Origin: a virus
Strand: one strand, 5' to 3'
DNA length: 64,000 bases
IMG/VR virus record: IMGVR_UViG_3300011443_000014
Span: 2,563-66,562 of that record
Shown here: positions 55,057-59,068 of the stretch, one piece after another
Layout: each line of letters begins with the position of its first letter
How positions within the stretch are numbered: position 1 is the stretch's first letter
The notes under the pieces: generated by a model
Told to the model about the DNA's origin: nothing
The model's input: only the letters and a program-made list of their open reading frames with translations
Databases searched by the model: none
Translations under genes and position numbers: made by a program

Positions 55057-55862
55057 TTTGAGTCTCCCAGCAGTCGCTTCAGGGCGTCGATGGTCTCCTT
55101 CGCCGCCGCGTTCTTCTGCGCTTCGGCACGGGCCAGGATGGACTGACGGAGGACGGTCAGGGCCGTTTCCTTCGCCAGACTCAGGGCGGCTTCGGCTTCT
55201 TCGAAGACCTTGACCACAGCGAGCTCGTCGTTCGTCAGGGTCGACGCCACGTCTGGCGCCACGACCGCTGCGGCGACCGTGGCTGAGACGATGTCCGGGG
55301 GAAGGACGATCCGCACGGGAGGCCCACTCGACACCACCTCAGGCCGTCCAGCACGTTCCTGGCTGTGCACTTCCCGGATCACGCGGTTCACGGCGCCGAC
55401 CGAGGTCATCGGGCCGTAGGTGTCGACGCCGGCTTCCCGCGCCTTGTCGATGGCGATGCGCTGCAAGTTCAGTCCGACGTTCTTCGTCAGGAGCAGGGCG
55501 CCGACCTTGTGCGGGATGGAGAACCGGGCGGCCGTGCGCTCCGTGGTTTCGGTTGAGGCGTAGTGAACGAACCGGTCGTCGTGGTCGATCTCGTAGCTGC
55601 CCGACGGGCCGCCGACGATCATCACGCGCTGGCCGGCGGCCAGATGCTGGCGCAGTTCCGTCGCGACTCGATCCGGGGTTACGAGTAGTTCGCGGCCCGT
55701 GCCGCGCAGTGCGCTCTCGAGATTGTTCAGGCCCATGTCATCGTCTCCTTCAGGTTCGTCGGGGGTGTCGTCTCCCGGCGCGTGGTACGTCCCGTAGAGG
55801 GCGACGGCAGCCCCGTTGCTGCCGGCGTTCCACGGTCGTCGCGCCGTCTTCCGTGCGGTCAC
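55053..55862 (-). CDS. Hypothetical protein (start could be 55736)
   Basis: C-terminal coiled coil; stronger RBS at MGLNN. Confidence 0.65.
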   Translation of the reverse strand: MTARKTARRPWNAGSNGAAVALYGTYHAPGDDTPDEPEGDDDMGLNNLESALRGTGRELLVTPDRVATELRQHLAAGQRVMIVGGPSGSYEIDHDDRFVHYASTETTERTAARFSIPHKVGALLLTKNVGLNLQRIAIDKAREAGVDTYGPMTSVGAVNRVIREVHSQERAGRPEVVSSGPPVRIVLPPDIVSATVAAAVVAPDVASTLTNDELAVVKVFEEAEAALSLAKETALTVLRQSILARAEAQKNAAAKETIDALKRLLGDSK

Positions 55863-56113
55863 AGATTACGGTGTTCCTTCAGCCACCGAACTTCGGCCTC
55901 GAGGGCCTGGGCTCGCGTCGTGAACGGGCCGAGCAGAGGACCAGCGGACGGGCTCATGTCGGCCGTCCAGAGGCCGTCAGGTGTCGGCTCGACGTGTGAG
56001 GCACGGGTGATCGTGACGACGGCACCCTGAGCCACCAGCGGGCTCAGGGCGTCATCGTAGATCGCCCGGATACGGCCGCCAGCGGCGACCTTCAGGACGA
56101 CCGGGGTCTTCAC
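55859..56113 (-). CDS. Conserved small protein of the DUF1257/DUF2997 neighbourhood
   Basis: GRIRAIYDD..ITRASHVEP..WTADM..LGPFTTRAQALEAEVRWL. Confidence 0.75.
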   Translation of the reverse strand: MKTPVVLKVAAGGRIRAIYDDALSPLVAQGAVVTITRASHVEPTPDGLWTADMSPSAGPLLGPFTTRAQALEAEVRWLKEHRNL

Positions 56114-56298
56114 CGGCCGGCTCCCCGTGTCACTTCGACGGGGTCGTTGTACATCTCGGCCGTCGGCGTGTCGTTGATGGTCGTGCCGAGCGCCGTCTCC
56201 AGCGCCCGGGTTGCGTCCTTGCACTCGGCGCCGACGAACCCGTCGGTCGCTACGCGGACCTTGGCGTCCTTCGTGATCGTGACTGTGATGGTCTTCAT
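56110..56298 (-). CDS. DUF2997-family protein
   Basis: ITVTITKDAKVRVATDGFVGAECKDATRALETALG. Confidence 0.8.
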   Translation of the reverse strand: MKTITVTITKDAKVRVATDGFVGAECKDATRALETALGTTINDTPTAEMYNDPVEVTRGAGR

Positions 56299-56343: not shown

Positions 56344-56361
56344 TAAGCCCCGAAGGGCTTA
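56344..56361 (-). terminator. UUCG hairpin (possible weak terminator/processing site)
   Basis: TAAGCCC-TTCG-GGGCTTA overlapping the DUF1257 stop; weak U tract. Confidence 0.45.
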
Positions 56362-56814
56362 CCGCTGGTACCCCATGACGACGACTTCACCGGTCGACTG
56401 GTCGACGTGTCGCGTCACGTCGTACCCTTCGGCCATCAGCGAACGCGCCGAGGTCTCGGCCGCGTATTCCTGGCGCAGCCGCTCGAGGCTCCGACCGGCC
56501 ACGGCCTCGAGGCCATAGCCTTCGTGCCAGTTGTCGTACACCAGCGCGAACCCGTCGCCGTCGGTCGCCTTGACGACGCCGATCTCGTACGCGTTCGTGT
56601 TGTTCGGCACGCCGATGGCGTGCTCGCACTTCCCGAAGGTCTTCGGGTCGCGGGTCCGGGCCGCCGCGTCGTTGCCGCGGTAGTCGCCGACGAATCGGCC
56701 GTACCACTTGTGCGTCTTCTGGTCGGTTCGGAATTCCAGACCGACGTTCAGGCTCGCTTGCGCGAGGGCGTTCAGGTCGAGGACCTTCAGGTCCATCTCT
56801 ACGACGTGGGACAT
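56359..56814 (-). CDS. DUF1257 (Ycf35-like) protein
   Basis: MSH..LDLNALAQA..GLEF..YEIGV..FALVYDNW..RLRQEYA..GY. Confidence 0.8.
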   Translation of the reverse strand: MSHVVEMDLKVLDLNALAQASLNVGLEFRTDQKTHKWYGRFVGDYRGNDAAARTRDPKTFGKCEHAIGVPNNTNAYEIGVVKATDGDGFALVYDNWHEGYGLEAVAGRSLERLRQEYAAETSARSLMAEGYDVTRHVDQSTGEVVVMGYQR

Positions 56815-57113
56815 TGCACACTCTCCTTCTGTTGTTCGACGGTCGACGACGACGAGGGCTTCAGGACCAGGTACTGGTTGTAGACGCACTCGGTGACGCG
56901 CGTGGCGTGGTTGTAGCGGCGACCCGCATAGTAGGTCGTGCCGCGTCGGTCGTTGTTCAAATAGGTCACGGTCGACATCTTCAGGCGGACGTCGAGGATC
57001 TGCACCTTCCGCCACGTTCCCGTGCAGTCCTTGTAGAGGGTCACGCCGTCAGGGTTCGCACGATGGGCGATCAGCCGCTCGACGAGCAGACGGTCCGCGG
57101 CGGCGCGGGTCAT
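56799..57113 (-). CDS. Hypothetical protein
   Basis: MTRAAADRLL..; ATGA coupling. Confidence 0.55.
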   Translation of the reverse strand: MTRAAADRLLVERLIAHRANPDGVTLYKDCTGTWRKVQILDVRLKMSTVTYLNNDRRGTTYYAGRRYNHATRVTECVYNQYLVLKPSSSSTVEQQKESVQCPTS

Positions 57114-57355
57114 CGCGCCACCGCCACATACACCGGCACGACGATGGTGTGCAGCCGACCGGACCCGAGCAGGGAGTCTCGCATCCGGATCGCCGCGGTC
57201 ATGTCGACGAAGGGGATCGCGTAGTCGGAACCACCGGGCATCCAGCAGGACGACTCCGTATCGTAGACCCATGAGGTCCCGTCGACGAGGTCTTCCTGGC
57301 GGAGTGAGTAGCGGATAACAGGGGCGGGCGGGTTCGTCGTCGTCGTGTTCGTCAT
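57110..57355 (-). CDS. Hypothetical protein
   Basis: First gene after promoter copy B. Confidence 0.55.
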   Translation of the reverse strand: MTNTTTTNPPAPVIRYSLRQEDLVDGTSWVYDTESSCWMPGGSDYAIPFVDMTAAIRMRDSLLGSGRLHTIVVPVYVAVAR

Positions 57356-57383
57356 CGTCGTCTCCCGTCGGACCATCCGACCC

Positions 57384-57426
57384 GAGTGATGTTACTACGC
57401 ATAGTAACACCACGTCAACCCCCCGG
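57384..57426 (-). promoter_or_regulatory. Conserved early promoter/operator, copy B
   Basis: TTGACG(57413-18)-18 bp-TAACAT(57389-94); here GTTACTA-TGCG-TAGTAAC is a perfect inverted repeat. Confidence 0.8.
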
Positions 57427-57451
57427 CAACCCTTAGGAAAACCGGGGGGTT
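57417..57451 (-). terminator. 10-bp stem hairpin after the AAA gene, overlapping the -35 of copy B
   Basis: aaccccccgg-15nt-ccggggggtt. Confidence 0.5.
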
Positions 57452-57460
57452 TACCGAGGT

Positions 57461-59068
57461 CTAGCTCTCCAGTTTGATGTCCCGCTTCCGCACGTTCGAC
57501 GGCACCGGCAGGGCCAGTTCCGGCTTCGCCGTGGACGGGGTCACATAGGAGTCACCGGTTCGGGCATCGACGAACCCGGACGCCACGGCTTGCTGCCGCA
57601 GACCCTCGACCAGTCCGGGGTTGCTCCGGTAGATCGACACGATCTTCCGGGCCGCATCGGTCAGGGGCTTCTTCGTCCGTGCCGAGATCTCGCAGCACGC
57701 CTTCACTTCGGCGCCGGTCCAGTTCGTCGACACCGGCAAGGGCTGGGCCGCCAGTTTGTACGTCTTCATGTAGTGCGCCCAGAGGGCCGCCATCCCACGA
57801 TCTGTCGGGAGGTCGAAGTAGTAGAGGCCGTACTTGAATCGACGCCGCAGTTCGGGCGGCATGGCCTCGAGGCCGTTGCACGTCGCAATCATCAGGACGC
57901 GGCCTTGACCGACGGCATCGACGACCGACAGGCCGTGACGGATGCGCGCCTGGCTGCCACCGACGAGCTCGTTCTGCATCGCGCCGAGGTCGAACTTCAC
58001 CGTCGGGGCGCCGCAGTAGGAACCGGCCGCCTTCGCAAACGCCGACTTCCCGGTACCAGGTGCGCCCATCAGGAGCAGGCCGACGACGTCACGGAACCCG
58101 TCGGCGCCATCGGACCACGACAGCAACTGGCCGACCTGATCCTGCGCCACGCCGCTCGTGTCGCCACGGAACCCGGCGATCGACTTCTCGATCTCGTCCA
58201 GCCACATGACGACGCGCGGCGACCAGTGCTTCGACAGGTCACGCACAAACTCCGCGGCGCCGTCGACGTCCTGCAGTTCGGTGAACTGTTCCTTTCCGCG
58301 GTAGACGCTCAGGCCTTCGGTCTGTTCGATGACGCTGATCTTCCGGGACCAGAGCTCGTCCTTGTCGACGCCGGCCTTGCGCAGCGACAGGGCCGTCACC
58401 TGTTCGACGGCGAAGGCCGACAGGCCGATGGTCGCGTCGACCAGTTGATCGAGGGTCGGCGCATCGGGCTTCGTCACCTTCCCTTGTTCGAATACGTCAT
58501 TGATGATCTTCCGCACGGCTTCGTCGTCGGGCAGGGCTTCGGCGAAGACGAGCACGTCGTTCACCAGTTCCGTCGGCAGACGCAGCGACGGCGCGAGCAG
58601 CACGAGGGTTCGGCCGTCTTCCTTGAACGGGTCACGGGCGATCGTGACGGCCTGGATGGACGGTGTCGAGCGGGAGTCGGGACCGCCGACGACGCGGTGC
58701 GCGTTCATGGCGAACACGCAGCCGCCTTCCGGCAACCCGGACACGGTCTTCGTCCCGTTCACGAGGACGTCGACGGCCGTCGTGAAGTCGATGGTCCGGG
58801 CCAGGACGAACGGCGGGGCCGGCGGCTGGTTCGGCTTCGGCGGACGGGGCGCCTCGAGGGCCGCGATCCACGCGCGGGCCGCATCGTTCTCCGGGGTCAG
58901 GCCTCGCACGCAATCCCACGTCAGGATCGCGTCGACGCCGACCACGGCGGCGAGGGTCTTAATCGTCTCGGGCTGATCGGGCGTCTCGACGCCGAGGATG
59001 GGCACGCCCTTGTTCCTGGCGTTTTTGAACGTCTCGGACAGTTTCGTCGGGTGAATCGTCAGGCTCAT
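57461..59068 (-). CDS. Ycf46-like AAA+ ATPase with permuted motif order
   Basis: Start MSLTIHP; VMWLDEIEK precedes GAPGTGKS; IATCN sensor-1; PPELRRRF. Confidence 0.88.
   Translation of the reverse strand: MSLTIHPTKLSETFKNARNKGVPILGVETPDQPETIKTLAAVVGVDAILTWDCVRGLTPENDAARAWIAALEAPRPPKPNQPPAPPFVLARTIDFTTAVDVLVNGTKTVSGLPEGGCVFAMNAHRVVGGPDSRSTPSIQAVTIARDPFKEDGRTLVLLAPSLRLPTELVNDVLVFAEALPDDEAVRKIINDVFEQGKVTKPDAPTLDQLVDATIGLSAFAVEQVTALSLRKAGVDKDELWSRKISVIEQTEGLSVYRGKEQFTELQDVDGAAEFVRDLSKHWSPRVVMWLDEIEKSIAGFRGDTSGVAQDQVGQLLSWSDGADGFRDVVGLLLMGAPGTGKSAFAKAAGSYCGAPTVKFDLGAMQNELVGGSQARIRHGLSVVDAVGQGRVLMIATCNGLEAMPPELRRRFKYGLYYFDLPTDRGMAALWAHYMKTYKLAAQPLPVSTNWTGAEVKACCEISARTKKPLTDAARKIVSIYRSNPGLVEGLRQQAVASGFVDARTGDSYVTPSTAKPELALPVPSNVRKRDIKLES

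Follow-up and report, generated by a model that had tools for sequence, protein, structure and literature searches.

Here we describe a phage-encoded tandem AAA+ protein, designated P0001, in which the two adjacent blocks carrying Walker A and Walker B have changed places. Its gene lies on the minus strand of a 64,000-nt stretch of DNA (the window; all positions below are counted within it), which covers positions 2,563 to 66,562 and thereby most of the 66.9-kb IMG/VR phage record IMGVR_UViG_3300011443_000014, a metagenome-derived contig. We consider it very probable that P0001 is a Ycf46-type, Cdc48-like ATPase consisting of a degenerate first domain (D1) and a catalytically complete second domain (D2), whose blocks are swapped and whose fold is kept. 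The exchange concerns two neighbouring blocks and is a non-circular, not a circular, permutation.

All classical AAA motifs are present in P0001, namely Walker A (GxxGxGK[ST]), Walker B (hhhhDE), the sensor-1 asparagine and the arginines of the second region of homology. Their linear order departs from the classical one of Walker A, Walker B and sensor-1. On translation, the Walker B motif VVMWLDEIEK occupies residues 286-295 (nt 58213-58184, with DEIEK beginning at 58198), about 45 residues N-terminal of the D2 Walker A motif GAPGTGKS (residues 335-342, nt 58066-58043). GDTSG (residues 302-306) and LLSW (residues 315-318) follow Walker B, while FDLG (residues 359-362) and LVGGSQARIR (residues 368-377) follow Walker A. 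Then AVGQG runs directly into RVLMIATCN (together residues 385-398), which includes sensor-1 (IATCN, residues 394-398), and the arginines stand at residues 408-410. The match to the Pfam AAA profile (PF00004) is well above threshold (48.8 bits versus a cut-off of 21.2), covering only profile positions 1-51 of 131 (residues 331-381). The gene and its product can be divided as follows:

57461..59068, minus strand: whole gene of the Ycf46-like tandem AAA+ protein P0001, 535 residues (open reading frame list and translation; homologues colinear over the full length)
58325..59068, minus strand: D1, degenerate AAA-like domain with lid, residues 1-248 (AlphaFold model and alignment to p97/Cdc48 D1D2 from residue 6)
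58214..58324, minus strand: linker and D2 lead-in, residues 249-285, with strand beta0, helix alpha0 and a final SPR (its homologous counterpart in normal-order relatives is the lead GGLENLK...G..P(R/K)G)
58091..58213, minus strand: block B, residues 286-326, with beta3/Walker B, the pore-loop-2 region (GDTSG) and alpha3 (VAT alignment, de-permutation, model strand 286-290 and helix 307-320)
57905..58090, minus strand: block A, residues 327-388, with beta1, Walker A, alpha1, beta2, pore loop 1 and alpha2 (Pfam AAA match, invariant K341, model)
57875..57904, minus strand: beta4 with sensor-1, GRVLMIATCN, residues 389-398 (invariant N398, model strand 390-397, beta3-beta4 couplings)
57836..57859, minus strand: second region of homology with its arginines, PPELRRRF, residues 404-411 (invariant R410; R408 and R409 in at least 90% of sequences)
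57464..57835, minus strand: beta5, helical lid with the sensor-2 region (WTGAEV, residues 450-455) and C-terminal tail, residues 412-535 (model; Vps4/spastin/FIGL1 alignment to about residue 503)

The open reading frame starts with an ATG at 59068, preceded 7-8 nt upstream by the ribosome-binding site GGGAG, and ends with the stop codon at 57461-57463; in the alignment, homologues share the start methionine. D1 has TPDQ in place of a P-loop and NAHR in place of a Walker B Asp-Glu pair, as seen in the homologue alignment. The first junction of the swap lies right after residue 285, at the end of the D2 lead-in, and the third between residues 388 and 389, where alpha2 is fused directly to beta4. 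Pore loop 1 corresponds to ELVGG (residues 367-371).

D2 of normal-order relatives runs from the lead to a first block (beta1/Walker A, alpha1, beta2, pore loop 1, alpha2), then to a second block (beta3/Walker B, pore loop 2, alpha3) and on to beta4/sensor-1. In the P0001 family, the lead is followed by the block from beta3/Walker B to alpha3, then by the block from beta1/Walker A to alpha2, and finally by beta4.

An initial annotation of this DNA had described Walker B as standing in front of Walker A and sensor-1, and translation gave exactly this order at the same coordinates. It had also taken the N-terminal half for a complete but degenerate domain; in line with this, the whole model superposes on the D1D2 of p97, Cdc48, NVL and Rix7. 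Its proposal that a Walker B block of about 40 residues had moved within the active D2 agrees with the de-permutation test and with matched AlphaFold secondary structures (block of about 41 residues). Moreover, it had regarded all catalytic residues as retained, and D291, E292, K341, N398 and R410 proved invariant in 120 homologues.

Colinearity with normal-order relatives

The block swap was first of all visible in the comparison with the solved VAT ATPase. Here, phmmer aligned residues 324-378 of P0001 to residues 316-370 of the VAT chain and residues 279-333 to residues 375-429, i.e. the two pieces match in reversed order. Normal-order relatives were taken from annotated records and comprised the Ycf46-like protein of a Planktothrix plasmid, a Treponema plasmid protein and a protein of a Candidatus Manganitrophus plasmid, as well as proteins of Rhizobium phage RHph_I4, Stenotrophomonas phage Summit and Pseudomonas phage UF_RH6. 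Few useful normal-order relatives came from tblastn searches of phages with the C-terminal part of the protein; the plasmid collection yielded them. The tblastn match to the Manganitrophus protein reached an E-value of 5e-33 with 26.5% identity over 90% of the length. The proteins of the Rhizobium, Pseudomonas and Stenotrophomonas phages, which gave colinear tblastn matches, had been considered as permuted candidates and were rejected: translation showed the normal order, and the alignments end at alpha2.

For an in-silico de-permutation, residues 285-326 of P0001 were placed behind residue 389. BLASTP E-values against the three normal-order plasmid proteins thereby changed from 2.7e-35, 9.4e-16 and 1.8e-9 for the native sequence to 2.2e-53, 3.8e-29 and 1.7e-21 for the de-permuted one, corresponding to a gain of 12-18 orders of magnitude. 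Similarly, the mean Smith-Waterman score against eight normal-order proteins rose by 118, compared with a mean gain of -38 +/- 48 in 200 controls, in which adjacent blocks as large as the real ones were swapped at random. The best of these control swaps gained 119, on par with the real one, and is assumed to be a draw that nearly coincides with it. A scan of possible junctions placed the best breaks between residues 285 and 286, within 323-329 and between 388 and 389. The alignment to Ycf46-like relatives, which the initial annotation had proposed as a check, is thus colinear only after the block swap has been reversed.

P0001 is Ycf46-like by its full-length homology (degenerate N-terminal domain, AAA domain and C-terminal tail) and by its DUF1257/DUF2997 gene neighbourhood. 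The normal-order Ycf46-like proteins of Manganitrophus (WDT73634.1), RHph_I4 (QIG76105.1) and Planktothrix (WP_254030557.1) have the same degenerate D1 and active D2. In addition, they have the lead, pore-loop, sensor-1, arginine and C-terminal tail motifs as well as the DUF1257/DUF2997 neighbours in common with P0001. They differ in that the stretch from Walker A to alpha2 precedes the one from Walker B to alpha3; this order is reversed in P0001, which sits in a separate permuted clade.

Conserved residues and likely activity

A further line of evidence concerns the state of the nucleotide site. Mean-field direct-coupling analysis was run with two sets of the permuted family, of 338 and subsequently 416 sequences (effective number 284-298), and gave a stable picture between them. 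The second-strongest coupling links residues 409 and 453 (window positions 57840-57842 and 57708-57710). R409 is combined with A453 in 302 sequences, and S, G, A or E at position 409 is combined with R453 in about 25. In these approximately 25 sequences, the arginine region appears to have lost an arginine to the sensor-2 (GAEI) position. Besides that, some family members carry intein-like insertions (C...HN followed by S or C), which interrupt the P-loop in P0281 (846 residues) and P0347 (810 residues) and sensor-1, between IAT and CNS, in P0306 (896 residues). Inteins usually sit in essential motifs. Together, the conserved residues, the inteins and the arginine move argue for an active enzyme.

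An alternative would be a pseudo-ATPase that keeps the fold for nucleotide binding or as a scaffold, with the rewired alpha3-beta4 and alpha2-beta3 connections breaking hydrolysis or inter-subunit signalling. The end of alpha3, which in classical AAA proteins carries an inter-subunit signalling motif, here runs into beta1 and not into beta4, and with ELRRRF in place of ELLRKGRF, the arginine region has two residues fewer than that of normal-order relatives. However, the Walker A lysine, the Walker B Asp-Glu pair, the sensor-1 asparagine and one arginine are invariant among homologues at 36-40% identity, which is not expected of a dead site. Inteins interrupt precisely the P-loop and sensor-1 in some members, and the arginine lost from position 409 reappears at 453, suggesting selection on the site. 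We therefore regard a pseudo-ATPase as improbable. The protein would rather be an active, probably hexameric, ATP-driven protein remodeller, and the swap may have been functionally near-neutral.

Predicted fold and coevolution contacts

The AlphaFold model of P0001 was obtained with a predicted local distance difference test (pLDDT) score of 93.8 and a predicted template modelling score of 0.87, the moved block reaching pLDDT values of 88-97. The best structural match over both domains is to the type II AAA unfoldases, i.e. Cdc48/p97/VCP, NVL/Rix7 and AFG2/DRG1 (Z 17-18, about 400 residues). Foldseek matched the whole model to the D1D2 of Rix7, NVL, Cdc48 and p97 with E-values of about 4e-11, and VIA-align aligned 406 residues to p97 D1D2 (Z 18.4). 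P0001 differs from these unfoldases by a sequence identity of only 12-16%, by a D1 without nucleotide motifs, by the lack of an N-domain and by the permuted connectivity of D2.

D2 alone superposes on the single-domain classical AAA proteins of the SpoVK/Ycf46/Vps4 group, namely Vps4, fidgetin-like 1 and spastin (Z 15-17, root-mean-square deviation 3-4 A). With Vps4, 217 of 259 residues were aligned (Z 16.8). The approximately 42 residues left over equal the size of the moved block; about one unaligned block is what would be expected of an aligner that follows the sequence order. Like classical AAA proteins, P0001 has a sensor-2 region without arginine (GAEV); in contrast to Vps4, spastin and fidgetin-like 1, its pore loop 1 (LVG) contains no aromatic residue.

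In the P0001 model, the elements of D2 follow each other as beta3 (286-290), alpha3 (307-320), beta1 (327-335), alpha1, beta2 (356-359), alpha2 (369-387) and beta4 (390-397). In the control, a normal-order relative modelled with a pLDDT of 90.1, the elements are beta1 (244-249), alpha1, beta2, alpha2 (283-299), beta3 (303-307), alpha3 (324-340) and beta4 (345-351). Both models thus contain the same D2 elements with similar lengths, and their order is swapped in P0001 relative to the control.

The spatial arrangement of these elements was derived from the direct-coupling analysis. The strongest coupling within D2 connects residues 286 and 387, and that between 285 and 388 is also high. Residue 286 opens beta3 and residue 387 lies in the last turn of alpha2; in normal-order proteins, a covalent link connects the two (the former alpha2-beta3 join). 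The residue pairs at these coupled positions are size-complementary (A/S, V/G, G/T). Among the top-L couplings between strands, seven connect beta3 with beta4, three beta3 with beta2, three beta1 with beta5 and two beta1 with beta4. For the permuted family, none was found for the pairs beta3-beta1, beta1-beta2, beta2-beta4 and beta2-beta5. Furthermore, couplings 289-342 and 289-345 join the Walker B strand to the P-loop helix, and nine top-L couplings lie between alpha3 and alpha2. From these couplings, the sheet has the classical ASCE order 5-1-4-3-2, with beta3 between beta4 and beta2.

A different reading would place the DEIEK block outside the D2 nucleotide site, either as a leftover Walker B of D1 or as a separate subdomain, and would leave D2 without a Walker B. 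The initial annotation had already raised a placement in a separate domain, and the position of the block N-terminal to the D2 P-loop, directly after the D1-D2 linker, as well as the restriction of the Pfam AAA match to profile positions 1-51, would fit with it. It was not borne out by the couplings, which tie the strand 286-291 to beta4, beta2, alpha2 and the P-loop helix of D2 and thereby put it alongside the P-loop helix, with the sensor-1 strand on one side and beta2 on the other. D1 is already complete before residue 248, with five strands and a lid of its own that align fully to p97 D1, whereas D2 minus the block would have four strands only, and de-permutation restores colinearity with normal-order D2. 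A separate block is accordingly very unlikely.

For a Walker B block that forms part of D2, we propose that only three loops would be rewired, namely those from the lead to beta3, from alpha3 to beta1 and from alpha2 to beta4. All three new joins would be located at the N-terminal (bottom) edge of the parallel sheet and would leave the nucleotide site at the C-terminal (top) edge untouched, so that the sheet could keep its order 5-1-4-3-2. The helices would remain on the same face because each new join would stay a right-handed crossover in the same direction. As judged from the two models and the couplings, the fold appears unchanged despite the swap.

Family spread, gene neighbourhood and meaning

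Next, we looked at the distribution of the permuted order. The 120 listed homologues of P0001, which are 36-75% identical and colinear along their whole length, all have Walker B first, while the 120 listed homologues of the normal-order Manganitrophus protein (P0123) all have Walker A first. An exhaustive search of 1.84 billion cluster representatives returned 4,774 relatives at E <= 1e-3, including 960 at E <= 1e-30. The best 150 of these 50%-identity cluster representatives (E <= 4.5e-78) were pooled with other collected members (n = 340). A motif pattern read 322/340 as permuted; the remaining ones were unclassed, being motif variants or intein-bearing. The sole member found in a cultured phage, gp103 of Tunturiibacter phage Tunturi_3, is permuted as well. 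With pattern scans, IMG/VR yielded at least 430 relatives and the GTDB species genomes at least 537, the latter mainly from Acidobacteriota (Bryobacteraceae, Terriglobia), with some from Armatimonadota, Myxococcota, Nitrospirota and Planctomycetota.

Some metagenome-assembled genomes contain several copies of the permuted ATPase, for example one of Acidobacteriota (L119, L122, L132 and L136) and one of Terriglobia (L156, L163 and L165). Some of these loci are located on megabase contigs, and the multiple copies suggest several prophages or resident elements per genome. Near-identical DNA of 57461-59068 was also present in several freshwater-sediment runs and one soil metagenome run of separate studies; because of this, the phage or its close kin is considered widespread.

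The initial annotation had suggested searching for the same order elsewhere and checking the reads across the junctions. The same order was found in hundreds of independent assemblies. Read support, judged on assembled contigs of the runs, was obtained in part: identical contigs from other sediment or soil metagenome runs span the first junction (three runs) and the second (one run), and the third is spanned only by a contig of the probable source run. Although the record is a metagenome-derived contig and its third junction is crossed by this one run, practically no room is left for an order produced by misjoined reads, since the same order and junctions recur in the 120 homologues, the 150 cluster representatives, the cultured phage and hundreds of IMG/VR and GTDB loci, and contigs of other runs bridge the first two junctions. 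Misassembly, which the annotation had named as a possible source of the order, is excluded by this conservation; the order is a family trait.

A phylogenetic tree was built from 50 normal-order and 55 permuted sequences, the alignment columns of the latter having been put back into normal order, using best-scoring matches only. The permuted sequences form one side of a branch (Shimodaira-Hasegawa-like approximate likelihood ratio test support of 98), and this clade is nested among normal-order phage and plasmid proteins with a cyanobacterial and Treponema outgroup. The simplest reading would be a single origin from a normal-order ancestor. The swap may have proceeded via a tandem duplication of the segment containing blocks A and B, after which the first A and the last B would have been lost; one duplication and two deletions would thus account for the present order.

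The window also encodes a tape-measure protein, a large terminase, a DnaB-type helicase and methyltransferases, with nearly all genes on the minus strand. The ATPase gene is the last of its operon, and a GC-rich hairpin (57419-57449, minus strand) is located just after its stop codon. The following operon is headed by a promoter on the same strand with TTGACG (57418-57413), an 18-nt spacer and TAACAT (57394-57389). Three features follow downstream of the ATPase gene:

57110-57376, minus strand: open reading frame (ORF) of 88 residues between the ATPase and DUF1257 genes (ORF)
56359..56814, minus strand: DUF1257 (Ycf35-like) gene, 151 residues, in the next operon downstream (Pfam PF06868, 23.6 bits versus a cut-off of 22.2)
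56110..56298, minus strand: DUF2997 gene, 62 residues (Pfam PF11211, E 2e-14)

The DUF1257 and DUF2997 genes thus lie 650-1350 nt downstream of the ATPase gene on the same strand, and both reappear in the majority of related loci. For the 88-residue ORF, neither a Pfam match nor a relative in 80 related viral loci was found. Among loci with full flanks, a DUF1257-like ORF occurs within 2.5 kb in 60/71 cases from IMG/VR and in 53/56 from GTDB; these counts come from iterated hidden Markov models and are approximate. The trio of ATPase, DUF1257 and DUF2997 also accompanies normal-order ATPases, namely in Rhizobium phage RHph_I4 and on the Manganitrophus plasmid. On the latter (L004:475-4195), a JAB-domain gene lies upstream of the ATPase and DUF1257, DUF2997 and DUF3150 genes lie downstream, forming a larger conserved module than that of the window. 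The DUF2997 gene is overlapped at its end by an ORF of 121 residues (55859-56224, minus strand), whose relatives adjoin DUF2997 in 19/80 IMG/VR and 7/80 GTDB loci; this ORF may represent a third, phage-specific partner. As a working model, the ATPase would form a Cdc48-like ring that acts with the DUF1257 and DUF2997 proteins to remodel a protein target during phage infection.

Searches of NCBIfam, PADLOC and PHROGs gave no informative family for P0001, only PHROG 8638 (unknown function) and weak matches to the anti-phage AAA ATPase IetA/IteA (PADLOC PDLC02196, NCBIfam NF042959), which extend from sensor-1 to the lid with E-values of 1e-9 and 6e-9. An assignment as IetA/IteA defence ATPase was rejected, as the score was 35.6 bits against a cut-off of 510 and the gene is located in a phage and not in a defence island. 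No IetS-like partner was detected by PADLOC among the six neighbouring ORFs scanned and, apart from the partial IetA/IteA hits, P0001 matched no defence or anti-defence family in PADLOC.

By analogy, the nearest precedents are the circularly permuted GTPases and the HK97 fold of Bordetella phage BPP-1. In YlqF, YjeQ and YqeH, a P-loop NTPase core has an altered motif order with fold and site kept; these are circular permutations (G4-G5-G1-G2-G3) in TRAFAC GTPases. In P0001, by contrast, two internal blocks of an ASCE AAA+ domain have been exchanged non-circularly. The capsid protein of BPP-1 has a non-circularly permuted HK97 fold in which two elements are swapped and the fold is kept, and such swaps were called rare in nature by its authors (PMC3863775). 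It has no detectable sequence similarity to relatives of normal topology (PMC3863775). In contrast, P0001 is an enzyme and not a capsid protein, and its permuted and normal forms are clearly homologous. The full-text literature searched, with most subscription journals outside its coverage, contained no description of the swapped Walker order, alone or with the Ycf46/DUF1257/DUF2997 module.

On balance, and with some reserve, we lean towards regarding the P0001 family as the first recognised natural non-circular permutation of an AAA+ (ASCE P-loop) core that remains an active motor, derived from a single ancient swap and since dispersed among phages of Acidobacteriota and other bacteria of soil and sediment. 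Several points count against the explanation preferred here, a swapped D2 core with its fold kept and a single origin. The sheet order rests on coevolution and matched secondary structure rather than on a direct view of the model coordinates; the effective number of sequences is only about 290, and the non-neighbouring strands beta4 and beta5 share one or two top-L couplings. The third junction is seen in the contig of the probable source run only. The root of the tree is assumed from the cyanobacterial and Treponema outgroup, with sampling limited to best-scoring matches. Finally, pore loop 1 lacks an aromatic residue (LVG), likewise in normal-order Ycf46 relatives, and for this reason classical threading is not certain.

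The connectivity of the AAA+ core is assumed to be fixed in classification, profile models and mechanistic thinking, and a large natural family departs from that. One practical consequence is an annotation problem, as profile tools cover only a third of the domain (Pfam AAA positions 1-51). If the above holds true, the units beta1-alpha2 and beta3-alpha3 would be exchangeable modules, and ATPase function would not depend on the covalent links between alpha2 and beta3 and between alpha3 and beta4, the second of which carries the inter-subunit signalling region. The family would then represent a natural experiment on which covalent links a motor can do without and could serve as a model for designing split or permuted AAA+ proteins. 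The uncharacterised Ycf46/DUF1257/DUF2997 module occurs widely in phages, plasmids and cyanobacteria, and the cultured phage Tunturi_3 makes the permuted form of the ATPase testable.

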